Shown here: positions 7,687 to 54,156 of the stretch, piece by piece
How positions within the stretch are numbered: the first letter of the stretch is position 1
How the letters are laid out: every line of letters begins with the position of its first letter
Assembly: GCA_028279365.1 (NCBI GenBank)
Contig: JANQNX010000014.1
Span: 143,921 to 207,920 of the forward strand
Origin: Gammaproteobacteria bacterium
Lineage (GTDB): Bacteria > Pseudomonadota > Gammaproteobacteria > Eutrophobiales > Eutrophobiaceae
Direction: 5' to 3'
Length of the DNA stretch: 64,000 nt
Made by a program: the position numbers and the translations under genes
Notes under the pieces: generated by a model
Databases searched by the model: none
Told to the model about the DNA's origin: nothing
Seen by the model: the letters and a program-made list of their open reading frames with translations, nothing else

Positions 7687-8460
7687 TTATTGGATAACAA
7701 ATTCAATCGGTACGCGTACCCAACTGGTGACAGCCGTACCGTTTTTATTGGTGGGTTCAAATTCCCATTTACGGACAGCGGCAAGCGCCGCCTTATCAAG
7801 TAAAGAATGACCTGATGACTTCATGATTTTTAATTCGCTCGGTAAACCATCTGGCTTGACCAGGGCATGTAAGGTCACGTTACCCTGTTGACCTAACTCA
7901 AGAGCACGACGCGGGTAGCGTGGCGGTGTTTGTTTTCGATATTTTGCATCTTGAACAACCGTTGACAGTTCTTTGCCAACTGCAGGGGCCAATGCCACCG
8001 TCTCAATTCTGGTCGGGTAATTCGTTTCTTTTGTTTCGACCGGTTTTTTTATCTCATTATCGCGTTCGGGTTTTTGAGGTATAGGTTTCGTGATTTGTTG
8101 TTTAACGATTTCGGTTTTTTTAATCACTGGTTTTGGTTCAATGGTCTTTTGAGGTTTAGGCTCGGGTTTGATTTTGGCAATTTTTTTCGGTGCCTGTTTT
8201 TTCGTGACAATCTTTTTCTCTTTAATGACAGGTTTTGGAGGAAGGGGTGGCATCATTGTTTTTATCGGTTCCGGTTTTGGCGCAGGAGCCGCAATGCTCA
8301 TCAAATTGATCTTAATTTGACTGTCGGTAGGTAGTGATATTGAATCGGGTTTAGGCTGGATTAAATTGGCAATAACCAGATTTGCAAACAGCGAAAGGGC
8401 AAGATAGTGAAACCATCTTGCCCTTGGTTCAGATTGTAGGTCGAAACGATCTGCTACCAT
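7687..8460 (-). CDS. tonB: Energy transducer TonB
   Basis: N-terminal TM anchor, long Pro/Lys/Glu-rich spacer (PKPEPIK repeats), conserved C-terminal TonB domain. Confidence 0.75.
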   Translation of the reverse strand: MVADRFDLQSEPRARWFHYLALSLFANLVIANLIQPKPDSISLPTDSQIKINLMSIAAPAPKPEPIKTMMPPLPPKPVIKEKKIVTKKQAPKKIAKIKPEPKPQKTIEPKPVIKKTEIVKQQITKPIPQKPERDNEIKKPVETKETNYPTRIETVALAPAVGKELSTVVQDAKYRKQTPPRYPRRALELGQQGNVTLHALVKPDGLPSELKIMKSSGHSLLDKAALAAVRKWEFEPTNKNGTAVTSWVRVPIEFVIQ

Positions 8461-10532: not shown

Positions 10533-10567
10533 GATAACTCCCTAAAGTTCATGTACGGTGTTTGCTA

Positions 10568-10614
10568 GCTGCCTGGCTGCCTGTAATGGTGGCTGGGTGG
10601 CTGGGTGGCGGGCT
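10568..10614. repeat. Short tandem repeats in hemP-hemR intergenic region / hemR 5' leader
   Basis: CTGCCTGG-CTGCCTG followed by TGGCTGGG-TGGCTGGG-TGGCGGGC on the + strand. On the transcribed strand this gives CCCAGCCA repeats just upstream of the hemR RBS. Confidence 0.5.
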
Positions 10615-10623
10615 ACTTACCTA

Positions 10624-10815
10624 CTACTTGGTTAAGATTAATTTACCGTTGCCGGTTAAACGTAATTTGTATTCCTGGTTATTGTGAACAATGATGATCT
10701 CTCTCTTGCCAGACATGAGTTGTTCGCTCTCGATCCGATCAGAGATGGGGATCATTCTTTGCTGGTCATTAATTTCATTTTTCTGAATCATTATAAAACC
10801 AAGAATAATTCTCAA
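10624..10815 (-). CDS. hemP: Hemin uptake protein HemP/HmuP
   Basis: 63 aa ORF ending ...YKLRLTGNGKLILTK, the hallmark C-terminus of the HemP family. TTG start; an ATG nine codons downstream is an alternative. It is the first gene of the locus. Confidence 0.6.
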   Translation of the reverse strand: MRIILGFIMIQKNEINDQQRMIPISDRIESEQLMSGKREIIIVHNNQEYKLRLTGNGKLILTK

Positions 10816-31594: not shown

Positions 31595-32287
31595 ATGTCA
31601 GACAAGCCGCGCTATTGGGTAGTGATTCCTGCCGCAGGAATTGGTAAACGTGTTGGCGCTGATCAGCCCAAGCAATATATTACGATTCATTCGAAAACAA
31701 TTCTTGAACATACTATCGATTGTTTTATTGAACGTGCTGACATTACCGGTATCGTCGTCGCGATTGCGAAAGACGATCCTTATTGGCAAACATTGGCTAT
31801 TCATAATCATGAAAAAATTATCACAGCGCCAGGCGGTAAGGAACGGTTTCAATCTGTGACTAATTCGTTGCATGCTTTGCTTGATATGGCTGATCAAAAT
31901 GACTGGGTGATGGTGCATGATGCGGCGCGGCCATGTTTAAGCCAGGCTGCAATTGATCGATTAATAAAGGAATTAGCGCAGCATGATGTCGGAGGTATTT
32001 TGGCCATGCCTTGTCGGGACACGATGAAGCGTGCGGATAGTAATAATGACATAGTTGAAACAGTCGAACGCGAACAGCTATGGCATGCGCAAACACCGCA
32101 AATGTTTCGTTATCATTTTTTGTTGTCGGCGTTAAACGACGTTGTCGAACAAAGTAAGTTAGTAACCGATGAAGCCATGGCAATTGAACAACTGGGCTTA
32201 CAACCAAAATTGATTCAAGGCCATCATGAGAATCTAAAAATAACCCATAAAGATGATCTTCAGCATGCTGAAACGTACCTAGTATGA
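31595..32287 (+). CDS. ispD: 2-C-methyl-D-erythritol 4-phosphate cytidylyltransferase
   Basis: N-terminal VIPAAGIGKR motif; 230 aa. Confidence 0.85.
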   Translation: MSDKPRYWVVIPAAGIGKRVGADQPKQYITIHSKTILEHTIDCFIERADITGIVVAIAKDDPYWQTLAIHNHEKIITAPGGKERFQSVTNSLHALLDMADQNDWVMVHDAARPCLSQAAIDRLIKELAQHDVGGILAMPCRDTMKRADSNNDIVETVEREQLWHAQTPQMFRYHFLLSALNDVVEQSKLVTDEAMAIEQLGLQPKLIQGHHENLKITHKDDLQHAETYLV

Positions 32288-32775
32288 ATGAGATAAAAAA
32301 AATGCGAATCGGTCATGGTTATGACACACATCGATTAGTTGAGAACAGAAAATTAATTCTTGGTGGTGTCACCATTCCTTTTGAAAAAGGTTTGGAAGGT
32401 CATTCTGATGCAGATGCTGTGATCCATTGTTTGTGTGATGCTTTATTGGGCGCGATGGCAATGGGTGATATTGGCAAGTTTTTTCCCGATACCGATGCTG
32501 CATTCAAAAACATTAACAGTCGACTGTTACTTCAACAAGTTCATGATTTTATGAAAGAAAAAAATTATGTACTGGTTAATGCTGACATCACTATCTTGGC
32601 ACAAGCGCCAAAAATGGCAGCGCATATTCCTGCCATGATTAATAATCTTTGTGGCGATCTTCAGGTTGATCATTCTCAAATTAATATCAAAGCGACCACA
32701 ACTGAAAAGATGGGATTTATCGGAAACGGCGAAGGGATATCTTCCTACGCTGTCGTTTTACTTCACCATCAATAG
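32284..32775 (+). CDS. ispF: 2-C-methyl-D-erythritol 2,4-cyclodiphosphate synthase
   Basis: RIGHGYDTHRL and SDADxVxHxxxDALLGA motifs. ATGA overlap with ispD. Confidence 0.9.
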   Translation: MNEIKKMRIGHGYDTHRLVENRKLILGGVTIPFEKGLEGHSDADAVIHCLCDALLGAMAMGDIGKFFPDTDAAFKNINSRLLLQQVHDFMKEKNYVLVNADITILAQAPKMAAHIPAMINNLCGDLQVDHSQINIKATTTEKMGFIGNGEGISSYAVVLLHHQ

Positions 32776-32815
32776 TTAATCACCGACTTTCATTTCTTTT
32801 TTTTCTCTTATAGCG

Positions 32816-32850
32816 TTGACTAGTTATCTAACGATACGAGTCAAAGTCAA
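32816..32850. promoter_or_regulatory. Operator-like hexamer repeats upstream of rpfF-like gene
   Basis: TTGACT-N17-AGTCAA-AGTCAA: an inverted repeat plus a tandem copy of the same hexamer, about 77 nt upstream of the ATG at 32927. Confidence 0.25.
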
Positions 32851-32926
32851 TTTCTTTTAATTTTACTTTCGGATTCATCGTTAGCTCTGACGAATTATGC
32901 AGTAAACATTTTTCAGGAGCACTACC

Positions 32927-33832
32927 ATGAAGACATTAGATTTTTTAGCTAAAAAAGTAACCGATGATTTAAAACATATCGATTATCAGTTTGATGAATC
33001 AGAAGGGCTCATATGGGTTTATCTGGATGCCAGTCCAAGACCCTGTGTGACGCCTCAGCTTGTCAATGATATTCGTAATTTACATAGAACTATTGAAATC
33101 AATCACGGCAAGCTGCCGACAAAGAATGGATTGAAAACGGTGAAATACCATGTGCTTGATGCGCATGCAGACGGTGTTTTCAGTCTTGGCGGTGACCTTG
33201 CCTATTTTCTTCAGTGTTTAAAAACCAAAGATAGAATCGCGTTAAAGAATTATGCAAGAAGCTGTGTCAACGCCATTTATCCCATCATGGTCGATTTTGA
33301 ATTGCCTATTACTACAATTTCATTAGTCAGGGGTAATGCTCTTGGTGGCGGTTTTGAAATTGCCTTGTCGGGAGATGTTGTTATTGCTGAACGTTCTGCG
33401 CAAATGGGTTTTCCGGAAATACTCTTCAACACGTTTCCAGGTATGGGTGCATTTCAATCGTTAAGCTATCGCGTTGGGCTTAATCAGGCTAGCAAGATGA
33501 TAAAGAGTGCCAAGTTATATCAGGCCGAAGAACTCTATAACATGGGTATCGTTGACATTTTAGTCGATGACCACTCTGGTGAAGAAGCGGTTTATTCATT
33601 TATCCAGGATAACAACAAGCACTGGAATGGTAACAAGTCGATACAGTCTGTCTCCAATCGGCTTAAGCATTTTGAATATCGGGAAATTATGGATATTTGT
33701 TGTAACGACTGGGTGAATTCAGTCTTCAGTATGTCTGAAAGAGATATGCGAACGGTATCCCGGTTGTTGCGAAGTCAACAACGATATGTCTCAGACAATA
33801 AAGCCCAGGCATTGCGTCACGTCTCTGCTTAA
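32927..33832 (+). CDS. rpfF: DSF-family signal synthase (RpfF-like crotonase)
   Basis: Crotonase fold collinear with Xanthomonas RpfF (as I recall it): VFSLGGDLAYF, GNALGGGFEIALS, GFPEILFNTFPGMGA with both catalytic Glu retained, and a C-terminal ...RDMRTVSRLLRSQ tail. AGGAG RBS. Confidence 0.75.
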   Translation: MKTLDFLAKKVTDDLKHIDYQFDESEGLIWVYLDASPRPCVTPQLVNDIRNLHRTIEINHGKLPTKNGLKTVKYHVLDAHADGVFSLGGDLAYFLQCLKTKDRIALKNYARSCVNAIYPIMVDFELPITTISLVRGNALGGGFEIALSGDVVIAERSAQMGFPEILFNTFPGMGAFQSLSYRVGLNQASKMIKSAKLYQAEELYNMGIVDILVDDHSGEEAVYSFIQDNNKHWNGNKSIQSVSNRLKHFEYREIMDICCNDWVNSVFSMSERDMRTVSRLLRSQQRYVSDNKAQALRHVSA

Positions 33833-33871
33833 AAAAAACATTCATAATTTTCAAATTCAAAGGAGTAAAAA

Positions 33872-34984
33872 ATGAATACTATTGGTACGAAAAGTTTAAG
33901 GCCTTCAATATCAGAGTTTGTAAACCCATCTAACAAGACAGCTCTTGTTATATTTTTAATAGATATGACAATCTATGTCAGTGCAGTGGCCGGGATCATA
34001 TTTTTTGAAAGCCTTGTGTTAAAGGCATTATGTAGTATTTTATGTGGACTAAAAATGGCCTCGCTATTTGTTATTGCACATGATGCAGCACATGACAATT
34101 ACACAAAAAGTAAATGGCTAAATAAAGTGATTGCTCGATTGGCATTCTTACCGTGTTACCACAATTATAGTTTGTGGTTGATTGTTCACAACCGTTTGCA
34201 CCATCAGCTGACAAATATAAAGGGGGTCAATTCCTGGTCGCCGCTATCAAAACAAGATTTTGATAATTTGCCAAAATACCGCCAGTTATTGGAAAAGTTT
34301 TACAGAAGTCCATTTGGTATTAGTTTTAATTATATGATTGAGCGTTGGTTAAAGGATAAATTTTTTCCTTTTGTCAGACTGACAAAAGGAAAAAATGGAG
34401 CACACTGGCTGGATTTCACTATGGTTTCAGGTTTTCTTTTTTCACAGATCATGTTTTTCACATACTTGGGCTTTGTCTCTCCGGAAATAGGTGTGTTCGG
34501 TTCTTTATTGTTGGGAGTCGTTGCTCCATTTATGGTTTTTTGTTACATGGTTGGTTTCTCGGTGTATCAGCAGCATACGCATGAAATGGTACCGTGGTTT
34601 ACCACGCTGGAGGAGAGGGATGCATGTTGTGATGTAGAGGATTTAACAATACATGTTAAATACCCAAAGTGGTATAACTTGATCAGTCATAATGTGATGG
34701 AACACACTGCACATCATGTTGATCCCAGAATTCCGTCCTATGAGTTATCAAAAGCGCAGTCTGTATTACTGAAAGTTCTGGGCGATGATATCTTATCGAT
34801 TAATTTTTCGTTTTCCGATTTCATAAAAACCATGCAGCTATGTAAGTTATATGATTATGACACGCATTGCTGGCTTGATTTTGATGGCAATGTTACGAAC
34901 CCAACAGTACTAGCTTTTATAAAAGATAAGGATCATTCTGTCAATGGTTCGAGGACAGTTGATGAGTTTCCTAATGCGGCATAA
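33872..34984 (+). CDS. Membrane fatty-acid desaturase (three His-box family)
   Basis: His boxes HDAAHD, HNRLHH and HTAHH plus TM segments. AAAGGAG RBS. It lies 39 nt after the rpfF-like gene, so the two are likely co-transcribed. Confidence 0.8.
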   Translation: MNTIGTKSLRPSISEFVNPSNKTALVIFLIDMTIYVSAVAGIIFFESLVLKALCSILCGLKMASLFVIAHDAAHDNYTKSKWLNKVIARLAFLPCYHNYSLWLIVHNRLHHQLTNIKGVNSWSPLSKQDFDNLPKYRQLLEKFYRSPFGISFNYMIERWLKDKFFPFVRLTKGKNGAHWLDFTMVSGFLFSQIMFFTYLGFVSPEIGVFGSLLLGVVAPFMVFCYMVGFSVYQQHTHEMVPWFTTLEERDACCDVEDLTIHVKYPKWYNLISHNVMEHTAHHVDPRIPSYELSKAQSVLLKVLGDDILSINFSFSDFIKTMQLCKLYDYDTHCWLDFDGNVTNPTVLAFIKDKDHSVNGSRTVDEFPNAA

Positions 34985-35009
34985 TTAAATCGCGATAACC
35001 CCTAAAGAA

Positions 35010-35031
35010 AACCAGACAGGGAAGTCTGGTT
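35010..35031. terminator. Bidirectional terminator hairpin between convergent desaturase and sensor-kinase genes
   Basis: AACCAGAC-AGGGAA-GTCTGGTT, a perfect 8 bp stem, in the 49 nt convergent gap. Confidence 0.5.
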
Positions 35032-35033
35032 AT

Positions 35034-37547
35034 TTAGTTAGATAAGTTTGATTTACGTTGTTCCACATAGGAATAAAGCGCTGTTTTACTTTCTTTAAAC
35101 ACTTCTTTGAGTTCTATCAAAAGCGATGATAAATCATCATGGTTTTTCGATCTGGAAGCTTTGTAAATATTATCGGCAGATTTCGATAAGCGGGTAGCGC
35201 CAATTGAACGTGAACTGCCGTCCAATGTATGAGCATGTTCGTCTATATTATTGTAACTATTCTGGCTAACGGCATTATCGAGTTTTGTTATTGTTTCTTC
35301 TGCATCTTTGCAGAAATTACTGACAAGGTCAGCGACAAAGTTTTTTGTTTTAGACATTTGATTGAGCGAATCGAGTAAATCAGAGTCTATGATCGGCAAA
35401 TTTTTAGGATCGTTGATACTGACAATATTATGAGGAGAACTATTATCAGAGATGATATGCATATTTTTATCTCTATAAAGATCAGTAACTGTGTTTAATA
35501 GTCTTTCCGGTTCAATAGGTTTAGTGAGAAAGGCATCCAGTCTTGCTTCTTTACATGCCTCATAGGCTTCTTTCGTTGCGTTGGCCGTCAACATGATTAT
35601 TGGAATATGCCTGTTCTCCGGATACATGAAACGATACATCTTGGCGGCTTCAATGCCGTTCATAATCGGCATATGCATATCAAGTATGATGAGATCGTAT
35701 TCCTTCTGTTCCAGATAATCTAGAATAATTTCGCCATTTTCAACGATAGTCACCTGATGATTGCCGTGTTCGAGTATATTGCGAATTACCTTTTGATTGG
35801 TTTCATTATCCTCACCGACAAGTATGCTTAGGCTTTTACGGGCATAATCTGTGTTAAGTTCTGGTTCTCTCAATATGTTTCTTCCTGAATTGTCTGCATA
35901 GTCATTGGCAGCAACAAGAGCATGTAACGACCTGAATAATGATGTTCTTTCGGGCTTACTACTTATTATGGAGGCATAGCCAGCCGCCAGCTGATTACTG
36001 ATTTCACTATTATTATCAGTACAATCCGAGACCAATATTGCATGTGTATTCTTACTTATTGATTTAATTTCGTTGATTAACAGGAACGGGGAGGTATCCA
36101 GCTGCCGTTGAAAAACTAATGCAATCTGATAGCGACGATTTTCCATCATTTCTAACGCGCTGTGTGCATCGGTTGCCAGGTCAAAATCGATCATCCAGTT
36201 TTTAAGCTGTTCTGAAATATAATGATTTTGCTCAGTATTTGATGTAATCAATATGATGTTTGATTTATTAAGCTGTTCTAGCGAATGCTTTTCCTCAGAC
36301 AATACCTTTTGTCTTTGCAACATCAATTCAAACCAAAATGCGGAACCTTTATTTAATTTGCTGCTAAAGTCGATCACGCCACCCATTGCCTCAACTAGCT
36401 GTTTGGCTATTGCCATGCCAAGGCCTGTGCCGCCAAACTTCCTGGTTGTCGATTCATCGGCCTGGGTGAATTTTTCAAAAAGTTTGGCTTTTGATTCTTT
36501 CGGAATGCCAATTCCCGTATCAACAATTTTGAACCTCAGTTTAACGTCTGTATCCATGATCAAAATCGGTTCTACGTATATCTGGATTGAACCTTGTTCA
36601 GTGAACTTAATCGCATTGCTAATTAAATTAATAATAATTTGACGTAAATGTTGTTCATCTCCACGTAATAGAAAAGGGATTTCCGGTGATATGTGTATGT
36701 TAAGTACTAGTCCTTTATGTTCTGCTTGCGGCGCGAGCATATGTGAAGTTGAGTTAACCAATGAATGCAAGTCAAAGTCTACTTCTTTAATTGTCGTTTT
36801 GCCGGCCTCGATTTTTGATATATCCAGGATGTCATTAATCAGTGCCAGCAAAGTTTTTGCAGACGCTTTTATTGTTGACGCATAGTCCTTTTGTTGAATG
36901 TCAAGATCAGTTTTGTCAAGCAAGCCACTCATACCAATTACGCCATTCAGCGGTGTACGTATTTCATGACTCATATTTGCCAGAAATTGACTTTTTGCTT
37001 CATTTGCCGCCTCGGCAGAATTAATGGCTTTTCGTAACTGTGATATCAGTGTGGATACGTATACGGTCAAAATTATGATAGTGACTAAAAAACCATAGCT
37101 AAGAAATTTCTGTTCATGCCAGTATTCAACGTTGGTTAACACAAAACAAAAGCCAATAATGCTTAACAACATGCACGAGAACAAGTATTTATTACCGTAA
37201 CGAAAACCATATCCAAATGTGATGAATAGATAAGAGCCGATTAAGGGTGCACCATAACTACCTAAATGATACAAGGCATATGAAATGAGAACCGCATCGG
37301 AAATCATACCTATGTACCTCCTGTATGGAAGAGGTTTAGGGTTAAGAACCACCCAACAAAAAATTGCAATGCAAATTAAGAGATATTGAATTGGCGCTAT
37401 AACGGCTTGCGGAGGAAGTAATCTATATTCATATTCAATCCATAAAATATAAAAAAGCCAGATTGTTCCCATTATTAGTTTGACGAAGCACTGTATATGT
37501 TCAGAGTCCTCTCTGTTCTCCAGCCGACTTTTGATTATGTTAAACAT
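35034..37547 (-). CDS. rpfC: RpfC-like hybrid sensor histidine kinase (5TM-HisKA-HATPase-REC-HPt)
   Basis: N-terminal 5-TM sensor. H-box [10 protein letters not shown]. HATPase G-boxes. An intermediate receiver-like segment. A receiver domain ([14 protein letters not shown]). C-terminal HPt ([13 protein letters not shown]). The gene is markedly AT-rich. Confidence 0.85.
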
Positions 37548-37580
37548 TAGTACAACCTATGTTAAGTAACGCTATCGAGT

Positions 37581-38645
37581 CTATCGATTGTTATCTTGAA
37601 TATTAACTATATCAAGCAATGCATCGACACAAGCAGGATCGAAATGTTTACCTTTTTCAGAGATGAGGTATTCCTTGGCATGCTCAATTGGCCATGCTTT
37701 TTTATAAGGACGTTGATTGGTTAACGAATCAAATACATCAGCAACCGCAGTTATTCTTGCTTCAATCGGAATCTCGGATTCGCCTATCGCGTTGGGATAG
37801 CCTTTGCCGTTGTATTTTTCGTGATGATTAAGCGCGATGATTGCACCTGTTTGTAAATAAGGAGAGGGACTGTCTTTCAATAATTCATAGCCAATCTCTG
37901 TATGCGATTTCATTATAGTAAATTCTTCGCCAGTTAATTTACCTTGTTTCATCAGGATGTTATCTGCAATTGCAATCTTGCCTACATCATGCAGTGGAGA
38001 AGCCAGCTTGATTATTTCCGCCCGTTCTGCATCGATCCCCATCTTTATTGAGATTTGATGTGCAAATGAGGCGATACGTTTGAGGTGTTCCCCGGTAATG
38101 CAGTCTTTAAACTCGCAGGCACGGGTCAATCGATTCAGCGTTTCCTGTTCTCTCAGTAATAGTTCATCTGAATTGCGGTTGACTAAAAACTGAAGTACGT
38201 CTGTTTTATGTTCCAGACGCGATTGATGTTTGGACAAGGCCAGCAAATTTTTACATCGGGCTTTACATTCAGCTTGATCAAAGGGTTTATTGAGGAAATC
38301 ATTTACGCCAGATTCAAGTGCATTATGTAACGTCGATTTATCATCCATGATAGTGATCATGATAACGGGCACGTTTTTACAGCCCGGCACATGTCTTACC
38401 GACTGTGTGAATTCAATACCATTCATCTCCGGCATTTTAAAATCGGTAATAATGAGATCAGGGGGGCTGAGTCTGGCATCGGTTAATGCCGCCAAAGGGT
38501 GTTTGAACGCCCGGATCTGTATATCAGAATCAATGTTTCTGACAATCTCGGTCAGGATATTCAGGCTGACCGACTGATCGTCAACTATCATGACAGTTGA
38601 AGCCGAGTAATTTGCCGATATATCGTCGATAGAAATGGGTAGCAT
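37581..38645 (-). CDS. rpfG: RpfG-like response regulator with HD-GYP phosphodiesterase domain
   Basis: REC domain (VMIVDDQ...ITDFKMPEMNG) fused to HD-GYP (HLKRIASFAH, HDVGK, HHEKYNGKGYP). The GYP box has Asn in place of the usual Asp. Confidence 0.8.
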   Translation of the reverse strand: MLPISIDDISANYSASTVMIVDDQSVSLNILTEIVRNIDSDIQIRAFKHPLAALTDARLSPPDLIITDFKMPEMNGIEFTQSVRHVPGCKNVPVIMITIMDDKSTLHNALESGVNDFLNKPFDQAECKARCKNLLALSKHQSRLEHKTDVLQFLVNRNSDELLLREQETLNRLTRACEFKDCITGEHLKRIASFAHQISIKMGIDAERAEIIKLASPLHDVGKIAIADNILMKQGKLTGEEFTIMKSHTEIGYELLKDSPSPYLQTGAIIALNHHEKYNGKGYPNAIGESEIPIEARITAVADVFDSLTNQRPYKKAWPIEHAKEYLISEKGKHFDPACVDALLDIVNIQDNNR

Positions 38646-43213: not shown

Positions 43214-43503
43214 ACTAAGCTGTTTATTCGGAAAGAGAAAATTTTGATTATTTTATCAGCCCTTTGAATTTCAGGCTAAATTATTTTGCTTGAGTTTGAC
43301 TGTTGTTTTTCATCATATATATTTTGGCGGGAATAAAAAACTAGCTGTATCCAATAGTCACTATTTTTCTCTTGCAGACTGACCAATATTGTCTTTCAAA
43401 TTAAAAAAGTAGGCAGAGGGATTTCATAAAACTTACATAATTTTGTAAGAATTGATCGACAAAATACCTGTCTTTGTTTAACGACATATAAGGAAGCTGG
43501 GTA

Positions 43504-44292
43504 ATGAACAATCGGAAAAATTTGATGTTAGCGGTTTCCATTATCGCTTCTGTGTTTTCCTTCGCAGCAGATGCGGCGATGATAGATTTAACCGGTCAGG
43601 GTGGCAATGGGGGTGGTTTTGGCAATAGCCTGAATTTCAATCAGAATGGTATCTCATTAACTGTCAGCGCTTATGGTGAGACCGGTGCTGAGCATCCACC
43701 CGGCTCTTTGTATTATTTATTTGAGACCGCAGAGGTCTATAGTTGGAATAGCGGACTGGGTATTTGCAATCGACATGAGGGAAGTGCTGCTGGGGGGTGT
43801 TCAACAAACGAGCACGAAGTTGATACAGTAAACCGGGATGATCTGTTGGTATTTGAGTTTGACCAGTCGGTAAATTTTGAATCCATTACTGTTGATCCGT
43901 TTAATGGATCAGGAAGCGACCCCAATGATAGAGATATCATTTATTGGGTCGGCCAGGTGAGTCAACCCTTGCACCTGACGAACGAGACTTTTGCGACGCT
44001 CTCTTCCATCACCGGCATTGAGGACGAGATATACAGTCCGGTATCATCCAGCTATTCACCTTTTACTCATAGTTTAACCGGCACAGGAAACATATTATTG
44101 CTCAGTGGTAATTATTACGATTTGGGCTGCAAAAATAAAAATACCAGCAGCGGTTCTGAATGTGAGGCATACAAAATTACCAATATTACTGTTTCAGCTG
44201 CGCCTCCGCCTATTCCAGTTCCTGCAGCATTTTGGTTATTTGCCTCAGGCGTAAGCACATTATTCTGGAGACAACGAAAAGTTGCGGTTTAG
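43504..44292 (+). CDS. VPLPA-CTERM (PEP-CTERM variant) sorting-domain secreted protein
   Basis: Signal peptide, Gly-rich N-region, and C-terminus ...PIPVPAAFWLFASGVSTLFWRQRKVAV (motif + TM + basic tail). AAGGA RBS. Confidence 0.7.
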   Translation: MNNRKNLMLAVSIIASVFSFAADAAMIDLTGQGGNGGGFGNSLNFNQNGISLTVSAYGETGAEHPPGSLYYLFETAEVYSWNSGLGICNRHEGSAAGGCSTNEHEVDTVNRDDLLVFEFDQSVNFESITVDPFNGSGSDPNDRDIIYWVGQVSQPLHLTNETFATLSSITGIEDEIYSPVSSSYSPFTHSLTGTGNILLLSGNYYDLGCKNKNTSSGSECEAYKITNITVSAAPPPIPVPAAFWLFASGVSTLFWRQRKVAV

Positions 44293-44307
44293 ATTATTGT
44301 GGCTAAT

Positions 44308-45171
44308 CTACTTTGCTTCTTCGACTTTAATTAATACGTTGCGCTGTTCCTGTCCTCTTGAACGCGTGCTAATCGCGTTACGATTGCCATCGTCCTTAAA
44401 GTGTTGCGCCGCACCGCCGACCGGTATCCATTGCCCAAGTTTACCGCTTACCGTAGTTTCAATATTCTGTATATCAAAGGTATCCCGTTGTGCAGGATTG
44501 ATGCGTGATAAGGATGGCGACACCAGTAAGGTCACATTGTCACCCTGAAGTCGGGGTAATACATAGAAGCCTGAAGACACATCACGGTATTCCACGCCAT
44601 CCTGAATGATGACACCACCGCCGGTGACGATGGCATTGGAGGTAGGAATCGGTACCGACTGGCCGGTATTGATAAAAGCCGGGTTGCCCTCAAGTGTTGT
44701 CACGCGAAAAACATTTCGATCTTCGATACGCGAGCGTGTTTCCAAAGAACGATAGCGAATGACATTACCATCACTATCGCGTCCTTCAACAATCGTGCCC
44801 CTTCGTCCGGTCTCAGGTACATCCAGATTCACATCTCCTGCCTGATAACGTCCTGACAATCCGCCTTCACTGAGGTTGAAGTTACCATCAATATCTTGTT
44901 TGACACTGATCACAAGATTGCGCGGTGCGTAATCGATTTGTTCAAGTACACCAATAATCTGTTTCAGGTTAGAAGGCGTGGTTTTAACAATGAGTTGGTT
45001 GTTCATTCCCGTCACGGTGCCGCCCTCAGCGACCAGCGGTTTGATAATGGGGACAACATCAGAGACTAGACGATGTTTGAGTGGAATCATTTCAATTTTC
45101 ATCGATTCCGCCATGACTAAATTTGTCAGGCTGAGCAGTGACAGCAGTATAAATGTCAGACGAATATTCAA
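44308..45171 (-). CDS. Periplasmic protein with a single secretin-N (NolW-like) domain
   Basis: Signal peptide MNIRLTFILLSLLSLTNLVMA. Residues about 25-95 match the secretin_N pattern (IPLKHRLVSDVVPIIKPLV...NQLIVKTTPSNLKQIIGVLEQID). No secretin C-domain; the remainder is G/R/D-rich. Confidence 0.6.
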   Translation of the reverse strand: MNIRLTFILLSLLSLTNLVMAESMKIEMIPLKHRLVSDVVPIIKPLVAEGGTVTGMNNQLIVKTTPSNLKQIIGVLEQIDYAPRNLVISVKQDIDGNFNLSEGGLSGRYQAGDVNLDVPETGRRGTIVEGRDSDGNVIRYRSLETRSRIEDRNVFRVTTLEGNPAFINTGQSVPIPTSNAIVTGGGVIIQDGVEYRDVSSGFYVLPRLQGDNVTLLVSPSLSRINPAQRDTFDIQNIETTVSGKLGQWIPVGGAAQHFKDDGNRNAISTRSRGQEQRNVLIKVEEAK

Positions 45172-45683
45172 ATTAATACCCTGCGTAAGTTTGGATCAGG
45201 CGTCGCCGTTTCCCACATTGCGTTAAAGACTTCTAACAGGGCTTTTGACTCGCGTCGGCTATTGAAGTTTACTTTCCCTTTATAGCGTTCACGATTCTCA
45301 CGAAATAAATAACCAACTTCGTCGACGATCATTACCGCCTCATTAAATGATCTATATTCATTAGACGCTTTTCGTAACTCGATAAAGCTGCTCAGTTTAC
45401 CGGCTAAATCCAGTATCTTGTGCCCACGTCGTGAAATCAATGCAGCCTCAAACACAATGACACGAACTTCAGCGTAGCGATTACCAATGACGACTTTCCT
45501 CAGGGCTTCAACAAATTCCGGCTGATCATAAACAAACGGATCCAGTTCCGTGCTGATGATGGAAATTTTCTGTCTGGTTTGGCTAACCAGTTCCAGTGCT
45601 GCATCGGCATTTTCCTGCCGGGTCGAGATATTGATAGCGCCATCAGTCGACTGGCCTAAATCATAATCAGAAAAATCAATCAT
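45168..45683 (-). CDS. Hypothetical cytoplasmic protein (171 aa)
   Basis: ORF 9 nt after the purB stop, overlapping the downstream gene by 4 nt, which implies an operon. I recognised no motifs. Confidence 0.5.
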   Translation of the reverse strand: MIDFSDYDLGQSTDGAINISTRQENADAALELVSQTRQKISIISTELDPFVYDQPEFVEALRKVVIGNRYAEVRVIVFEAALISRRGHKILDLAGKLSSFIELRKASNEYRSFNEAVMIVDEVGYLFRENRERYKGKVNFNSRRESKALLEVFNAMWETATPDPNLRRVLI

Positions 45684-45692
45684 GCGCTTCAG

Positions 45693-47093
<1,401 letters not shown>

Positions 47094-47107
47094 CTAAATT
47101 ATACATG

Positions 47108-48151
47108 CTAAGGCCCGGGATTAGGATGCATCTCATGAATCGCCTCTATTTTCCTGATGAGGTCTTTACTCAAGTTGACATTGATACTGTCTATATCGGA
47201 TTTGAGTTGTGACATTGATGTCGCGCCAATAATGTTACTGGTCAGAAACGCACGTGAATTTACATAGGCTAATGCCATTTGTGCCGGGTCGAGTCCATTT
47301 TCTTTTGCCAGATTGACATAGGCGTCGGTTGCGGCAATCGCCTGCGTATTGGTGTAACGAGTAAAGCGATCAAATAGCACCAGCCGCGAACCTTCCGGCT
47401 TCGCGTTATTCAGGTATTTGCCACTGAGTACACCAAATGCGAGTGGCGAGTAGGCGAGCAGACCCACTTGCTCCCGATGTGCGAATTCAGCCAGTCCAAT
47501 TTCAAAGCTGCGATTGAGTAAGTTATAGGGATTCTGAATACTGACGATGCGCGGTGAATTATTCTCTCGAGAGACACGCAGATACTCGGCACAACCCCAG
47601 GCAGTTTCATTAGAAATACCAATCGTCCTGACCTTACCTGATTGCACAATTTCAGCGAGCACTGACAGGGTCTCTTCAATGGCAACGCCATCTTTTTCAG
47701 GGGCATGGTAGTAATTCAGTTTGCCAAAATAGTTGGTGTCGCGTTCCGGCCAATGCAGCTGATATAAGTCAAGATAGTCGGTTTGTAGCCGCTGCAACGA
47801 TGCATCAAGTGCTGCAGTAATATTCTTTTTATCCAGCTTCGCTTCGCCGTTGCGCAAGTAGGGTAACCATTCAGCTTGTGCACAGACTTTACTGGCGATA
47901 ATTAATTGATCGCGGTCGCTGCGTTTAGCTAACCAATTGCCGAGATAGGTCTCGGTCAGCCCCTGTGTTTCTGCCTTGGGTGCGACCGGATACATCTCTG
48001 CGGTATCAATGAAATTAATACCGGCGTCAATGGCATAATCCAACTGTTCATGTGCTTCCTGTTCAGTATTTTGCTCTCCCCAGGTCATGGTGCCGAGGCA
48101 CAATTGACTGACGCTGATATCCGTGTTTCCCAGTGTATTAAATTTCATCAT
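47108..48151 (-). CDS. tas: NADP(H)-dependent aldo-keto reductase Tas
   Basis: Collinear with E. coli Tas (LGLGTMTxGEQN...HxQLDYAxxxGINxIDxAEMYP ... IVxIQNPYxLLNRSFEVGLAE). Confidence 0.85.
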   Translation of the reverse strand: MMKFNTLGNTDISVSQLCLGTMTWGEQNTEQEAHEQLDYAIDAGINFIDTAEMYPVAPKAETQGLTETYLGNWLAKRSDRDQLIIASKVCAQAEWLPYLRNGEAKLDKKNITAALDASLQRLQTDYLDLYQLHWPERDTNYFGKLNYYHAPEKDGVAIEETLSVLAEIVQSGKVRTIGISNETAWGCAEYLRVSRENNSPRIVSIQNPYNLLNRSFEIGLAEFAHREQVGLLAYSPLAFGVLSGKYLNNAKPEGSRLVLFDRFTRYTNTQAIAATDAYVNLAKENGLDPAQMALAYVNSRAFLTSNIIGATSMSQLKSDIDSINVNLSKDLIRKIEAIHEMHPNPGP

Positions 48152-48237
48152 TACCTCGCGCGTTTCTCAATGACAGTTCAGACAATAGCACTGACTTATG
48201 ATACCTTTAAGTCATCGAATAAACTCAATTCTGTTGA

Positions 48238-49275
48238 TTGATGCAAACCCTGACAATTACGAAACCCGATGATTGGCACCTGCATGTGCGTGACGGTGAC
48301 ACATTGGCAAGCGTGGTGAATCATACTGCTGCCCAGTTTGCCCGCGCGATTATTATGCCTAACCTGCAACCACCTGTTGTCTCGACTGAAATGGCATTGG
48401 CTTACTATCAGCGGATTATGGCGGCCGTTGATAGTCGCTATCAATTTCAACCATTAATGACGCTTTATCTGACTGACAATACCTCGCCAGAAGAGATCAA
48501 GCTTGCGGCCAGCTGTGAACATGTCAAAGCGTTGAAATACTATCCTGCTGGTGCGACGACGAATTCTGATCAAGGGGTGACTGATTTTAAAAAGACTTAT
48601 CCTGCGCTTGAAGCAATGTCGGAGTTAGGCGTCTTGCTGCTATTGCATGGTGAGGTGACAGATAATCATATCGATGTGTTTGATCGAGAGGCAGTGTTCA
48701 TTGAAAAGATACTCTCCAGGCTGGTAGCTGATTTCCCGAATTTAAAAATTGTCTTTGAACATATCACCACCCGCGCAGCGGTCGAGTTTGTCATGCAAGC
48801 CGGTGACAACATTGCAGCAACCATCACACCGCAGCATATATTATTGAATCGAAATGATTTATTTCGGGGGGGATTACGCCCACATCATTACTGTTTACCT
48901 ATCCTGAAAGCGGAGGATGATCGGCAGGCAGTCATCGCTGCTGCAACCAGCGGTAACCCGAAATTCTTTCTCGGTACAGATAGCGCGCCGCATGCGCGTG
49001 GCAAAAAGGAAAGTGATTGCGGTTGTGCCGGTATTTATACCGCCCATATCGCATTGGAACTCTATGCTGAGGCCTTCGCCCGCGCTGATAAACTCGACAA
49101 ACTGGAGGCGTTTGCCAGTTTTTATGGCCCAGACTTTTATGGCCTGCCCAGAAATATCGATTCGGTCACGCTGATTAAACAGGAACAAACTGTGCCTGAT
49201 ACACTTCCGCTTGGTGACACTGTGCTGGTGCCGTTTCGTGCCGGCAGTAGCTGTAGCTGGCAACTACAACACTGA
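48238..49275 (+). CDS. pyrC: Dihydroorotase (class II)
   Basis: PDDWHLHx[14 protein letters not shown] and CGCAG motifs, collinear with E. coli PyrC. Confidence 0.9.
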
Positions 49276-49282
49276 TTACATT

Positions 49283-49897
49283 GTGGATACTGTTGCAACA
49301 CGTTTTCGTGGTTTTCTGCCGGTGATAGTGGATGTGGAAACCGCTGGCTTTAATGCTGCCACCGATGCCTTATTGGAAATCGCTGCGGTCACGATAACTA
49401 TTAATGATGAAGAACAATGGTGTATCGATGAAACGATTTCAAAACATGTGGAACCGTTTGAGGGTGCGAATCTTGATAAAGAATCGCTGGAGTTCACCGG
49501 CATTGATCCCGACCATCCTTTTCGCAAACAAATCGCTGTCAGCGAAGTCGAGGCGCTGCAGGCAATCTTTAAACCAATTCGAACTAAAATCAAACAGCAT
49601 CATTGCAAGCGTGCCGTGCTGGTCGGACACAATGCACATTTCGATTTAGGCTTTTTAAATGCCTGTGTTGAACGCAATGATATTAAACGTAACCCGTTTC
49701 ATCCTTTCAGCATATTTGATACAGCTACCTTGTGCGGTTTGGCTTATGGTCAGACGGTTTTGTCGCGCGCGGCGAAAGAGGCTGGTCTGGAATGGGATAC
49801 GAAAGAGGCACATTCTGCTCGTTATGATGCAGAGCAGACGGCATTACTGTTTTGTGACATTGTGAATAAGTGGAATACATACTCGGGCGTAATTTAA
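49283..49897 (+). CDS. rnt: Ribonuclease T
   Basis: DEDDh exonuclease collinear with E. coli RNase T ([18 protein letters not shown], HNAxFD, HSAxYD). A GTG start at 49283 best fits the homolog's N-terminus; the track ATG at 49211 would overlap pyrC by 65 nt. Confidence 0.75.
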
Positions 49898-49905
49898 GTT
49901 ATGAA

Positions 49906-50823
49906 TTAATAATACGCTTTCACCGGTGAAACAAAACCATTCGGTTTTAGAGCGAGCATGCCACAAGTTAATTGTTGCAAAATATTCTCAGCGGTGTTGC
50001 CAATAATAAAACCGGGAATGCCGTTTCTTGCTACTGTCCCCATCACCACCATATCAATCTTGTGTGTCTCGATATACTCGGGAATTTCTTCATTCGCTTT
50101 GCCTTTCTTCAGGATTAGACTGCCCGGCTTTTCTATTTTCGATTCTTCAAAAAGCGCGTCTATCGATTCTTTGTGGGCCAGTCGGGTGTCATCAAGCAGT
50201 TTGGTTAAGGTTTCAGCGTCGGTCTTTCCAAAGGCGGAATGTTTCAGAAAACTTTCATGTTCAAAATGCCAGCATGAAATAACATGGATAGTCCCATTCA
50301 GCATTGCATTCACTGCATAGCTCAGTTGCAGAAGTTTGATGCTCAGATCATGCCCTTCGGGCCTGTCGCTAAGCGGGTCGATGGCAACCAGGATCTGTGG
50401 GTTTTTATCAGTATGAAAATCTCTGTGAATCCAGACTGCACAAGGGCACTTTCGTAACAGATGCATGTCCAGCGATTTGAAACCAGAATGTTGTTGTGCA
50501 TCCAGCGGTTCTGATGACTTAATTACCAGGTCAATCTCGTTTTTCAGAACAAACTGGATAATCGCAACAAACTCAGGCGAGCTGGTTTGAAAAACAATCG
50601 GGCTGGCTTCGTTTATATTATGATGTTTGAGTTTTTCGCGAATTGAATCTTCGATAGTTTTTTGGAAGGCGGCCTGGGAATCAATCAACTCTTCCGGGAA
50701 CTTCGGATGCAATACCAGAAATGAGAGCTTACCATTGTTGGAAAAGCTCAGTGAGGCTGCGCGTTTTAGTACATCGTCTGATATCTGATTGGAGTAAACT
50801 ACAAAAAGGATATTCTTAAACAT
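49906..50823 (-). CDS. uspE: Tandem-domain universal stress protein UspE
   Basis: 305 aa with two Usp domains, collinear with E. coli UspE (HLLRKCPxPVW, GTVGRxGIxxxxxGNTAExV). Confidence 0.75.
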   Translation of the reverse strand: MFKNILFVVYSNQISDDVLKRAASLSFSNNGKLSFLVLHPKFPEELIDSQAAFQKTIEDSIREKLKHHNINEASPIVFQTSSPEFVAIIQFVLKNEIDLVIKSSEPLDAQQHSGFKSLDMHLLRKCPCAVWIHRDFHTDKNPQILVAIDPLSDRPEGHDLSIKLLQLSYAVNAMLNGTIHVISCWHFEHESFLKHSAFGKTDAETLTKLLDDTRLAHKESIDALFEESKIEKPGSLILKKGKANEEIPEYIETHKIDMVVMGTVARNGIPGFIIGNTAENILQQLTCGMLALKPNGFVSPVKAYY

Positions 50824-51155
50824 GGTGCGATACTATTACAGCTATAACTTAGGCAAAAATTAGATATTTTTATGTTACTAATTAGTCCGATGTATCAATA
50901 AAAATAGTTAGATTGTGATTATTTATCATCGTACGAAATAGAAAACAGAACATTATGTGTTGTGTTTTATCCAAAAGCATGGCTGATAGATAAATTCATT
51001 AAACTGTAATAATTTTGCAGTTACTGGATGATAGCATTTCATGTAGTTTGTTCAATGAGTGGTGCATGGACAGCATTTTGTAGTATGGAAAGTTTAAAAA
51101 AACAAAAAATTCATTTCCTTTTTTTCTGTTTATCCTCGGGTTAAGTCATAGTGCG

Positions 51156-52844
51156 GTGGCAGACATCACCGCATCGGGAAACTTGCCAATTAGCTATGAT
51201 GGCGTGTCCAATCCATGGATAGTTCGGCAGACAGAAATTTGTAATCCATTTATAGGTGGATGTTTTCTAATTCCTCTCAATGATGGCAATTTGGAACCGT
51301 TTGGCAATTTGGGTGTGTTTGGCTATGGTCCTGTAAGTGACTTAGCATTTAATTTACTGGAGATCGACAACGGCAGCGTCGTTATTAGTGAAGCGGGCTC
51401 TATAGGTTCTACCACCAGAATGTCTGGTTCTCATATTCTTACTGACGGGCATGGTGCCGTTGTTATCAAAGATCCCGGCAGTCAATGGATTAATCATGGC
51501 CGTTTGACGGTTGCGGCAGGTAGCGATGACGCATCCTTAGATGTGCTAAACGGGGCCTATGTAAACAGCGCCGAAGGCGCAATTAATCAAACCGGGATAG
51601 TGACCATATCTGGAGCTGGGTCCACTTGGTATAACGAAAACGGCCTGGAGGTAAATGGTGGTAGTATAAAAATTGAGAATGGTGCCCGACTAAGTAATTC
51701 AGTCGGTATCTTTAACTATCGTCCCTTTAATTCCTCATTTATTGACTATTCATCCTATCTTAGTTTATCAGGTTCCGTGACAATTTCCGGAGCGGGTTCT
51801 GTTTGGGAAAACAGACAGAGTAATAACCCAACACCGTATGATAGGTTATATATAGATGGTTCAGTGTTAATCGAAGACGGCGCCAGATTGGAAACCGTAA
51901 ATACATTTGTACGATTTGGTTTTGACACACAAAATATAACTGTAACGGGTACTGGGTCAACTTGGGAAAATCAGAACAATATTTTCGTCTCAAACCGATT
52001 AACTGTTTCAGACGGGGCCAAGGTAGTGACGAAAACGTCGACTTTTGACAACAGTGAAGTGTTGATCGATGGTTCAGGCTCCGAATTAACTATTCAGGAA
52101 AGTGCTCTTGTATTTGGCGGTCGTTTGAGTATTGTCAATCAGGCTTCTGTCAGCGGAAATGGCAGTTATAGTCAACGTGGTCGGCGTTCATTTAGCCTCG
52201 AAGAAGGCGTGCAATATTCTGGATTAACTACAGTTAACGGTATATTAGCATTTGATGGTGTGGAGATAATTGAGAGTAAAATTAATGGTAATGGAGATAT
52301 CAACGCTAACAACGTTTCAATAATCAATAGCTCGATAGAAGTGGGGGACAATCAGGAAACTGATATTTTTACCATTAACGGTGATCTATCGCTAATTAAT
52401 TCCATACTGGAAATTGATATTACGTCAACGGAAGAAATAAATAACATAGCAAGAATAAGAACTAACAGTTCTGATGTTTTACAGGTTTCAGGCACGACTA
52501 CAATTGAAAGAAGTTTTTTTTGGGGGGGCACTATTGAAGGTCCCGCGACCAACATCCTCTTCGATCTGACTGAATATGTCCCTATTTTGCAGACAGAAAC
52601 GTATACTTTTTTAACTGCTGATGAAATTTTATTTCAGGGTCTGGATATAGATGAGCTAATCGTAACTTTTTTGACTTCGTCCTCGTACAGTTTTGACTGG
52701 TTTATTGAACAGGTCCAGTTCAATGGCGGCCAGGCATTAAACTTAACGCTAGTTAACTCCGTACCGTTGCCAGCGGCTTTTTGGTTGATGAGCTTTGCCT
52801 TACTAGGTTTAATCCCTTTTAAAGCCTGTCGTTGTTCAAGCTAG
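51156..52844 (+). CDS. VPLPA-CTERM beta-helical repeat surface protein (N-terminus disrupted by T7 frameshift; intact form would start at ATG 51085)
   Basis: About 35 aa repeats (TISGAGSTW.N...G..L...) resembling autotransporter-associated beta-strand repeats. C-terminus ...NSVPLPAAFWLMSFALLGLIPFK. The in-frame upstream sequence encodes ...FPFFLFILGLSHSAVA (a signal peptide) but has no start codon. An ATG at 51085 in the +1 frame would join it if the T7 run at 51119-51125 were T8. Confidence 0.65.
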   Translation: MADITASGNLPISYDGVSNPWIVRQTEICNPFIGGCFLIPLNDGNLEPFGNLGVFGYGPVSDLAFNLLEIDNGSVVISEAGSIGSTTRMSGSHILTDGHGAVVIKDPGSQWINHGRLTVAAGSDDASLDVLNGAYVNSAEGAINQTGIVTISGAGSTWYNENGLEVNGGSIKIENGARLSNSVGIFNYRPFNSSFIDYSSYLSLSGSVTISGAGSVWENRQSNNPTPYDRLYIDGSVLIEDGARLETVNTFVRFGFDTQNITVTGTGSTWENQNNIFVSNRLTVSDGAKVVTKTSTFDNSEVLIDGSGSELTIQESALVFGGRLSIVNQASVSGNGSYSQRGRRSFSLEEGVQYSGLTTVNGILAFDGVEIIESKINGNGDINANNVSIINSSIEVGDNQETDIFTINGDLSLINSILEIDITSTEEINNIARIRTNSSDVLQVSGTTTIERSFFWGGTIEGPATNILFDLTEYVPILQTETYTFLTADEILFQGLDIDELIVTFLTSSSYSFDWFIEQVQFNGGQALNLTLVNSVPLPAAFWLMSFALLGLIPFKACRCSS

Positions 52845-52845
52845 A

Positions 52846-54156
52846 TTAAGCTCTTATTTTTGTTTCCCACTCGGTCGCTTTTTTCATCAAGCTACTGTAT
52901 TCGATGGTCGTCAATTCACGATTGGCTAAAACTTGTTTGCCCGCTATCCAAACATCCGTGACTTGCTGGCGGTTGCCGCTGTAGACCAGTTGTGAAATCG
53001 GTTCGAAATTTGGCAGTGTTTCTAACTGTTCAAGATTGATAGCGACGATATCGGCCTGTTTACCCTTTTTCAAAGAACCGATCTGTTCGCTTAAACCCAA
53101 TGCTTTGGCACCATTAATCGTTGCGGCCGCTAAAGCAGCAGGGGCAGCTAACGCAGTGCTATCTTGAGCGACGCCTTTTGCCAGTAAAGCGGCAGTGCGC
53201 ATTTCGCCAAACATATCCAGATCATTATTACTGGCGACACCGTCGGTACCAATGCAAACATTGACCTTGGCATCCATCAATTGTTTAACTGGACAAAAGC
53301 CGCTGGCAAGTTTGAGGTTGGACTCGGGACAGTGAGCGATACTTACACCTAGCTTGGCTAGATTCTGTATTTCAGCTGGTTCTAACTGCGTCATGTGGAC
53401 AGCTAATAGGCGCGGACTCAACAAGCCCAGTTCTTCCAGGCGTTGTAAGGGTCGCTTGCCGGTGTTTTCAACGGCCTGTGCCACCTCGTCAGCCGTTTCA
53501 TGGATATGCATATGAATCGGAATATCGAGTTCTTCTGCCAGCACACTGATACGCTTTAGTGGTTCATCAGAGACGGTATACGGGGCATGCGGTGCAAAGG
53601 CCGTATTAACCAGCGGTGCATGTCGATAATTATCATGGACTTGCTCGCCTTTTAAAATGTACTCATCGGCGTCTTTAGCCCAGGCGGTCGGGAAATCAAT
53701 CAAGATTAGGCCGACGACAACGCGCATACCCACGTTTGCACAGACCTCTGCAGTTTTATCGGGGAAAAAATACATATCGTTAAAACAGGTGGTGCCGCCA
53801 CGTATCATTTCGGCTATCGCGAGTTGTGAGCCTTCATTAACGAATTCAGGATCGACCCATTTCTGCTCGGCTGGCCAAATATGGTTATTCAACCATTCCA
53901 TTAATGGTAAATCGTCCGCCAGTCCGCGAAATAGATTCATCGATGCATGCGTATGGGCGTTGATCAATCCCGGGATCAATACATGACTATTAAGCACAAA
54001 CTCATTGTTAGCAGAATATTTTTGTTTTGCTGTTTCGGTTGGCAGGATCGCGTCAATCTTGCCAGCGTGAATTGCCAGAGAATGGTCCTTCAATACCTGG
54101 CCATGAGGTTCTACCGGGATAATCCATTTTGCGTTTAACAACGTATCAATATTCAC
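52846..54156 (-). CDS. mtaD: TRZ/ATZ-family amidohydrolase, probable 5'-methylthioadenosine/S-adenosylhomocysteine deaminase
   Basis: Metal-binding HxH (INAHTHASM), HxHETADE and a conserved D near the C-terminus. It is divergent from mtnA, a methionine-salvage context. Confidence 0.7.
   Translation of the reverse strand: MNIDTLLNAKWIIPVEPHGQVLKDHSLAIHAGKIDAILPTETAKQKYSANNEFVLNSHVLIPGLINAHTHASMNLFRGLADDLPLMEWLNNHIWPAEQKWVDPEFVNEGSQLAIAEMIRGGTTCFNDMYFFPDKTAEVCANVGMRVVVGLILIDFPTAWAKDADEYILKGEQVHDNYRHAPLVNTAFAPHAPYTVSDEPLKRISVLAEELDIPIHMHIHETADEVAQAVENTGKRPLQRLEELGLLSPRLLAVHMTQLEPAEIQNLAKLGVSIAHCPESNLKLASGFCPVKQLMDAKVNVCIGTDGVASNNDLDMFGEMRTAALLAKGVAQDSTALAAPAALAAATINGAKALGLSEQIGSLKKGKQADIVAINLEQLETLPNFEPISQLVYSGNRQQVTDVWIAGKQVLANRELTTIEYSSLMKKATEWETKIRA

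Follow-up and report, generated by a model that had tools for sequence, protein, structure and literature searches.

We report on two open reading frames (ORFs), P1 and P2, in a 64-kb stretch of gammaproteobacterial DNA from contig JANQNX010000014.1, the whole of which we call the window. We consider it likely that P1 and P2 are two unrelated accessory surface-protein genes carrying VPLPA-type PEP-CTERM sorting tails, and that P2 is broken at a tract of seven adenines (A7), its product not being exported. P1 (43504..44292, + strand; 262 residues) is a seemingly intact gene for an XDP1-like surface protein, judging from its ORF and its match to XDP1. P2, as called from a GTG (51156..52844, + strand; 562 residues), is adhesin-like and beta-helical by its match to the T5SS/PEP-CTERM-associated repeat, TIGR04393, and lacks a signal peptide. 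Both ORFs appear in the ORF list of the window, at the positions and lengths that a preliminary description of this DNA had assigned to them. By GyrA the source lineage is one of uncultured, largely marine gammaproteobacteria, with 83-90% identity to metagenome-assembled genomes (MAGs), and every housekeeping protein checked is a singleton at 90% identity.

The two genes share their C-terminal ends, ...PIPVPAAFWLFASGVSTLFWRQRKVAV in P1 and ...VPLPAAFWLMSFALLGLIPFKACRCSS in P2. The P1 tail (residues 236-262; 44209..44289, +), delimited by a hidden Markov model (HMM) of its family's tails and by P238/P240, consists of PIPVPAA, the helix FWLFASGVSTLFW and RQRK; the P2 tail (residues 536-562; 52761..52841, +), delimited by tail HMMs, consists of VPLPAA, the helix FWLMSFALLGLIPF and a weak basic end, KACRCSS. 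Both have the tripartite arrangement, at the extreme C-terminus, of a motif abutting a transmembrane (TM) helix and then a basic cluster, the basic part of P2 being weak (K..R); in PEP-CTERM proteins the motif is described as abutting the helix without a spacer (bioRxiv 10.1101/2023.06.07.544157). A six-frame regular-expression search for VP(L/V)PAA, a hydrophobic helix and a basic C-terminus returned only P1 and P2 among the window ORFs. As a targeted test, 26 tails from the P1 family, with those of P1 and P2 excluded, served to train an HMM that was run on the window translated in six frames (652 segments). The top scores went to P1, with 30.6 bits (E = 7e-9), and P2, with 15.8 bits (E = 3e-4, aligned to model positions 2-19 only); the next segment had 3.3 bits (E = 2.5). 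Because P1 and P2 score so far above the next segment, the signal they share is well above chance. We take it to be genuine in both, P2 being a protein with no relation to the family that trained the model. Further matches of the P2 tail are to the C-termini of floc_PepA (20.9 bits), EppA (14.5 bits) and XDP1 (13.6 bits).

P1 has the other parts of a surface protein as well. A promoter-like site upstream (43296..43323, +), TTGACT-16-TATATT, agrees with the consensus at 10 of 12 positions, consensus match being its sole basis, and a Shine-Dalgarno-like AAGGAAG lies ~9 nt 5' of the ATG. Residues 1-24 (43504..43575, +), read from the sequence as MNNRKNLMLAVSIIASVFSFAADA|AMIDL and modelled as a helix at residues 2-18, form the signal peptide expected of PEP-CTERM cargo, with cleavage at ADA|A; the N-terminal hydrophobic segment is kept throughout the P1 family. 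The ectodomain (residues 25-232; 43576..44199, +) is predicted to be a jelly-roll, galactose-binding-like beta-sandwich, in an AF2 (AlphaFold 2) model with a predicted local distance difference test (pLDDT) score of 84.7, and the predicted fold resembles the carbohydrate-binding module of an RTX adhesin. It contains four cysteines, at positions 88, 99, 209 and 220; the family keeps C88 and C99 without exception and C220 almost without. The ectodomain is probably glycan-binding. The preliminary description had called P1 Gly-rich; with 9.9% Gly and a single local GGNGGG patch, it is not.

The P1 family, of which we found 64 homologues of P1, ties these tails to a curated system. P1 aligns to positions 5-241 of the 242 of the XDP1 model NF041927 (75.7 bits, E = 5e-21; cut-off 125 bits), and is thus a homologue of XDP1, not a member of the equivalog. 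Scores across the family run from 59 to 108 bits, and only one Burkholderiales protein, L030, which has a canonical VPEP tail, passes, at 143.9 bits. All 20 of the aligned homologues match XDP1, and 15 of the 20 match TIGR03370, the VPLPA-CTERM model (best E = 5e-10); L019, a member of the P1 clade, passes that model outright (31.7 against 25.35 bits), and NCBI names several family members 'VPLPA-CTERM sorting domain-containing protein'. The tripartite tail is conserved in the family, with P238 and P240 invariant, and its wording follows lineage: VVP(V/L)PAA...RRR in gammaproteobacteria, VPEP...RRRR in Burkholderiales, Caulobacterales and Bryobacteraceae.

A second XDP1-like clade, 33-36% identical to P1 and with VVP(V/L)PAA tails, is found in nine or more gammaproteobacterial MAGs, with amtB ~3 kb downstream of it (loci L019, L020, L022-L025, L027, L028 and L032; match at ~10001-10700 or equivalent). 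In some cases both clades occur in one genome, as in L005/L024 and L006/L027. A recurrent ORF of ~500 residues and 11 TM segments downstream of this distant clade was considered as an exosortase and rejected, being amtB itself.

P2 is built from repeats. About five of them, each of ~45-55 residues, occupy residues ~60-340 (51333..52175, +), as placed from the cores and the model, and are predicted to form a right-handed beta-helix; cores of the form (V/I)T(I/V)(S/T)G(A/T)GS(T/V)W begin at 51612, 51789, 51948 and 52071. TIGR04393 is assigned at 23 bits or more and in multiple copies, and P2 scores 79.5 bits over 4 stretches, with four or five GxGSxW cores. Residues ~100-330 of the AF2 model have pLDDT 75-97, and the top Foldseek matches are the passengers of Ag43 and TibA (probability 0.85-0.99, E = 3e-4 to 2e-3), at TM-scores that are low (0.17-0.23) because the model is poor outside residues 100-330. 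By tblastn the repeats are 27-32% identical to annotated plasmid autotransporters. An autotransporter-barrel domain found no Pfam or NCBIfam match in P2; the C-terminal end is a TM helix, not the 12-strand barrel of a classical (type Va) autotransporter, and the last 140 residues contain no barrel in the model, whose confidence is low there. The family match, the tblastn result and the Ag43/TibA fold match all agree with the earlier suggestion of autotransporter-like repeats without a beta-barrel.

An exhaustive HMMER search found 241 relatives of P2, all matching through the repeat region. Among the 149 best representatives, a PEP-CTERM-type tail is present in 88 (59%) and an outer-membrane-protein-barrel-like end in ~22; the VP(L/V)PA variant occurs in two, both within the 88. 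The preliminary description had thought a sorting tail on a beta-helical adhesin unusual. The tails of these 88 relatives and the very name of TIGR04393, 'T5SS/PEP-CTERM-associated repeat', contradict that view: a passenger followed by a PEP-CTERM-type tail, as in P2, is the norm of the family.

The 5' end of P2 is where the gene departs from this norm. The called product begins MADITASG..., with no signal peptide. Upstream of GTG 51156 the P2 frame encodes ..KFKKTKNSFPFFLFILGLSHSAVA, whose h-region and AXA cleavage site are those of a textbook signal peptide; no start codon, however, occurs in this frame between the GTG and the preceding stop. ATG 51085 opens MESLKKQKIHFLFFCLSSG* in the other frame, the out-of-frame 5' end of P2 (51085..51155, +). 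The two frames join at the A7 tract (51096..51102, +; TTA AAA AAA C, with A AAA AAA as its heptamer), seven codons into the signal peptide, and this tract is followed by A6 (51104-51109) and T7 (51119-51125) tracts. One added A, or a -1 slip at A AAA AAA, gives a 586-residue protein, MESLKKTKNSFPFFLFILGLSHSAVA|DITASGN.... The relatives of P2 begin with a signal peptide and then A(I/V)(I/V)TxxG(D/N)V, so the family's mature N-terminus directly follows the signal peptide. We conclude that the annotated 562-residue P2 is mis-called, and that the real gene has a signal peptide encoded in a frame other than that of the called ORF, out of frame at A7. Since the signal peptide is out of frame, P2 as sequenced is not exported and is not exosortase cargo; it is a recent pseudogene, a phase-OFF state, or dependent on -1 slippage.

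The frame break is probably real. The A7 tract is identical in the Logan assembly of SRR20820731, made independently with a k-mer assembler and present here as two contigs of 30 kb and 9.5 kb, and the 562-residue call is the same in it as in the NCBI assembly; the 25 other long homopolymer tracts inside window ORFs are all in frame, with none broken; and the backbone genes have the same lengths as their orthologues in relatives. These points make it improbable that the break is a sequencing or consensus error in an ordinary, intact 586-residue gene, even though homopolymer indels are the commonest error type and the two assemblies may stem from the same reads. A different account takes the break as functional: P2 would be phase-variable, switched ON and OFF by slipped-strand change between A7 and A8, or recoded by a -1 shift in a fraction of ribosomes, with the adhesin on a subpopulation only. 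The position of the break, exactly on a perfect A AAA AAA from which a -1 shift or an added A restores a textbook signal peptide in frame, speaks for it, as do the remaining 562 codons, all open, and an excess of homopolymers in P2, which holds 4 of the 32 long tracts of the window against 0.88 expected (Poisson P = 0.012), including an in-frame T8G7 pair (52514..52528, +; from the tract count). The product is adhesin-like, and surface adhesins are a class of protein that is typically phase-variable. However, A7 is short for efficient slipped-strand variation, and tracts of this sort are common in the window, 25 others being in frame; the heptamer is in the correct register for a programmed -1 site, but no clear Shine-Dalgarno-like element lies upstream and no significant stimulatory RNA structure was found downstream of A7 (z = -0.8); no orthologues were found; and the weak, degenerate basic end of the tail fits decay equally well. 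We therefore treat a phase-variable or recoded P2 as a minor possibility, on the unlikely side. That both its export and its exosortase-dependent display are gated by A AAA AAA, by A7/A8 phase variation or by low-level -1 slippage of ribosomes or of transcription, we hold to be unlikely; with such a gate, only part of the cell population, or only some rounds of translation, would yield surface-displayed adhesin, and the gate would be a contingency switch on PEP-CTERM cargo in a free-living marine bacterium.

Both genes are accessory to their surroundings. The complete relative OZ271833.1 shares the backbone order purL, mini-secretin, DUF7931, purB, AKR, pyrC, rnt, mtaD, mtnA, gyrA onward, and has neither P1 nor P2 at the corresponding positions: its purL adjoins the mini-secretin gene, where the window has P1 and its promoter region in between, and its rnt and mtaD are 22 bp apart, where the window has a 3-kb block of uspE and P2. 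An orthologue of P1 (72% identity) is present in OZ271833.1 at another genome position. The span 43504-52844, taken as one feature in the preliminary description, is by synteny two separate single-gene insertions, each an accessory-gene islet, with six housekeeping genes in between. Because P1 and P2 occupy variable slots of a conserved housekeeping backbone, they are part of the flexible genome, and such variable islets are where niche-specific surface proteins are expected. We found no convincing repeats, as scars of mobile elements, flanking either insertion, and no tRNA genes in the window.

No exosortase is encoded in the 64-kb window, in agreement with the preliminary description: its polytopic membrane ORFs are ActP, EamA, AgcS, MFS, ClC and similar, each assigned to something else. 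In the flanks of reference loci, polytopic membrane ORFs, chosen first by a strict filter and then by a lax one, were scored against NCBIfam and Pfam; they are AmtB, MFS, DsbD, Lnt, YidC, Lgt, Wzy and similar, and PF09721 or Xrt had no match within 10 kb of 39 P1 homologues in reference genomes or near three P2 relatives. Plasmids searched by tblastn yielded nothing for P1 and autotransporters only for P2, and a literature search returned no paper on VPLPA-CTERM or XrtD. Every species with PEP-CTERM proteins is reported to have an exosortase, and PEP-CTERM proteins always to have signal peptides (PMC3237569); from this strict co-occurrence we infer an exosortase elsewhere in the source genome. 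The lack of one near the cargo would fit the arrangement described for PEP-CTERM systems, scattered cargo with one enzyme elsewhere. The subtype may be XrtD, as the preliminary description proposed, XrtD (TIGR04152) being the exosortase that TIGRFAMs pairs with VPLPA-CTERM.

If the known system applies here, cargo would be exported by Sec through the N-terminal signal peptide and held in the inner membrane by the C-terminal helix, until an exosortase encoded elsewhere in the genome cleaves at or near VP(L/V)PA and the cleaved protein is passed to the cell surface or the exopolysaccharide (EPS) matrix. P1, being intact, would in this way show a small, disulfide-containing jelly-roll, most likely glycan-binding. 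P2 would be an adhesin resembling beta-helical self-associating autotransporters, from a family, TIGR04393, that normally bears a PEP-CTERM tail and not a beta-barrel. With its signal peptide split from the mature protein by the 1-nt frame break at A7 it would stay unexported; the gene would then be in an OFF state or a pseudogene of very recent origin, barring -1 slippage at A AAA AAA by a small share of ribosomes or transcripts.

Several results weigh against this interpretation. The P1 and P2 tails both fall below the curated cut-offs of TIGR03370 (25.35 bits), TIGR02595 (16 bits) and PF07589 (20.7 bits): P2 reaches 10.3 bits against TIGR03370 at full length and 15.0 bits with the tail only, and P1 reaches 14.3 bits against PF07589, over the full model (1-24), and has no match to TIGR03370 or TIGR02595. 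P1 at 75.7 bits is also under the XDP1 equivalog cut-off. The basic cluster of P2 is weak (K..R among Cys) and is omitted from the tail-HMM alignment. P2 is without an orthologue, its best relatives being ~30-45% identical and in the repeats only, so that there is no intact 5' end for comparison, and we found neither a promoter-like site nor a Shine-Dalgarno sequence for P2. The window, and ~690 kb made up of the 39 reference loci around P1 homologues and the loci around P2 relatives, showed no exosortase. The sorting-domain check proposed in the preliminary description thus came out divided, both C-termini failing the curated thresholds and both being significant in the targeted tail-HMM test. 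Family context nevertheless saves the VPLPA-type PEP-CTERM assignment despite the sub-cut-off scores, and the description's placing of both C-termini in that type is supported by the tail HMM, by the TIGR03370 matches in 15 of 20 P1-family proteins, by the NCBI names and by the passing score of L019.

The same sub-threshold scores could mean that the tails go unprocessed, as relics or as C-terminal membrane anchors of a generic kind, either because the genome has no exosortase or because the tails have diverged past recognition; the empty ~690 kb and a P2 already disabled at its 5' end would suit this idea. Yet the P1 tail motif is invariant in at least 20 homologues and replaced by canonical PEP in other phyla, which argues for selection by a cognate enzyme; moreover, close homologues pass TIGR03370, and PEP-CTERM is reported to occur strictly together with exosortase (PMC3237569). 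Unprocessed tails accordingly seem to us improbable. A further question concerns the enzyme, which may not be a dedicated XrtD: a general exosortase of an EPS locus (XrtA-like), or another gammaproteobacterial subtype, could have drifted to VP(L/V)PA. In the XDP1 family the motif tracks lineage, the true XDP1 of Burkholderiales (L030) having a canonical PEP-CTERM and its gammaproteobacterial homologues VP(V/L)PA, and in view of this lineage-dependent swap, an exosortase of another subtype, tuned to the lineage, has to be taken seriously as an alternative. The P2 tail, besides, matches the tails of PepA and EppA, proteins of the EPS/XrtA system by name, and TIGR03370 and XrtD were defined on alphaproteobacteria and not, so far as is known, on the source lineage. 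The presence of the same variant motif in both cargo proteins fits a subtype-specific enzyme instead. We give an enzyme other than XrtD a little under an even chance; the assignment of P1 and P2 to VPLPA-type cargo genes, with P2 broken, is the reading that we retain.

The rnt|mtaD junction is a variable islet in the lineage (window 49898-52897; L048 7337-7423; L049 3850-7407; L050 6577-7444): the slot is empty in OZ271833.1, holds a helix-turn-helix gene in GCA_038142205.1 and a Na+/H+ exchanger with a cytochrome b561-like block in GCA_040217615.1, and holds uspE and P2 in the window. The uspE-like universal stress protein gene (49906..50823, -; NF008380, E = 6e-38, 130.6 bits, under the 227-bit cut-off) is divergent from P2, and the two lie in one 3-kb insertion relative to OZ271833.1. 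Next to P1 (44308-45683, -) come a mini-secretin and, after it, a DUF7931 protein, a pair that the relatives L048 and L050 likewise have with purL on one side and purB on the other. The mini-secretin has a signal peptide, Secretin_N and a partial Secretin domain, and with 287 residues is much shorter than classical secretins (>400 residues). We considered and rejected a functional tie between P1 and this pair, which is backbone in relatives without P1 at that place and occurs in 0 of 39 P1-homologue loci.

Elsewhere in the window, positions 32000-38000 are low in GC (0.38-0.39, against 0.44 for the window) and may be a further accessory segment, with genes for a fatty-acid desaturase-like protein, a BarA-like hybrid histidine kinase and an HD-GYP response regulator. 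Positions 2951-10532 (-) hold an iron-uptake-type cluster of a FecCD-like permease, ExbB/TolQ-like and TonB-C-terminal-like proteins and a 692-residue TonB-dependent receptor-like ORF, most members being assigned from C-terminal sequence and TM counts only. In GCA_038142205.1 purB and mtaD each appear as a pair of ORFs (L050 2320-3692 and 7445-8754), probably through assembly frameshift error there; the backbone genes of the window, unlike these, are all intact.

PEP-CTERM/exosortase cargo is widespread and its families are already curated, so most of what we describe has little import beyond annotation. Three points go further. The XDP1-like family, with VPEP or VP(V/L)PA according to lineage, provides clean comparative evidence for VPLPA as a lineage-tuned flavour of the same sorting signal; the lectin-like ectodomain predicted for P1 suggests a testable glycan- or EPS-binding role for that family; and in P2 there is either a candidate phase switch or a newly arisen pseudogene.

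Set against known systems, the two tails resemble VPLPA-CTERM (TIGR03370), a variant of PEP-CTERM (TIGR02595/PF07589), in their place at the extreme C-terminus, in VP(L/V)PA abutting a hydrophobic helix and in the basic residues after it, and members of the P1 family pass or approach the model; they differ in that P1 and P2 are sub-threshold and in the degenerate basic cluster of P2 (KACRCSS). PepA of Zoogloea resiniphila (NF033554) is a small PEP-CTERM surface protein required for floc formation, on experimental support as cited in bioRxiv 10.1101/2023.06.07.544157; its C-terminal region is matched by the P2 tail and by 11 of 20 P1-family members, but the likeness is confined to the tail and the ectodomains are not homologous. 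With XDP1 (NF041927) P1 shares its size (~250 residues), a signal peptide, a C-terminal exosortase-type tail and alignment over nearly the full model, whereas its score is below the cut-off and its clade is gammaproteobacterial with VP(V/L)PAA, the passing member having VPEP. The P1 ectodomain resembles the carbohydrate-binding module of the Aeromonas salmonicida RTX adhesin (PDB 9q5u) at 13% sequence identity; that module is part of a giant RTX protein, while P1 has the domain on its own, followed by a sorting tail.

P2 is like other TIGR04393 proteins in its GxGSxW repeats, in a mature N-terminus of the form A-I-T-x-x-G and in belonging to a family most of whose members, among the relatives compared, have PEP-CTERM tails. 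It is unlike them in its VPLPA tail, shared with 2 of 149 relatives, in its shortness (562-586 residues against ~900-2000), in the lack of any orthologue above ~36% identity and in its out-of-frame signal peptide. With the type Va autotransporters Ag43 and TibA it shares a passenger predicted to be a right-handed beta-helix built from repeats; in contrast to these, P2 has no C-terminal beta-barrel translocator, and a sorting tail stands in its place.

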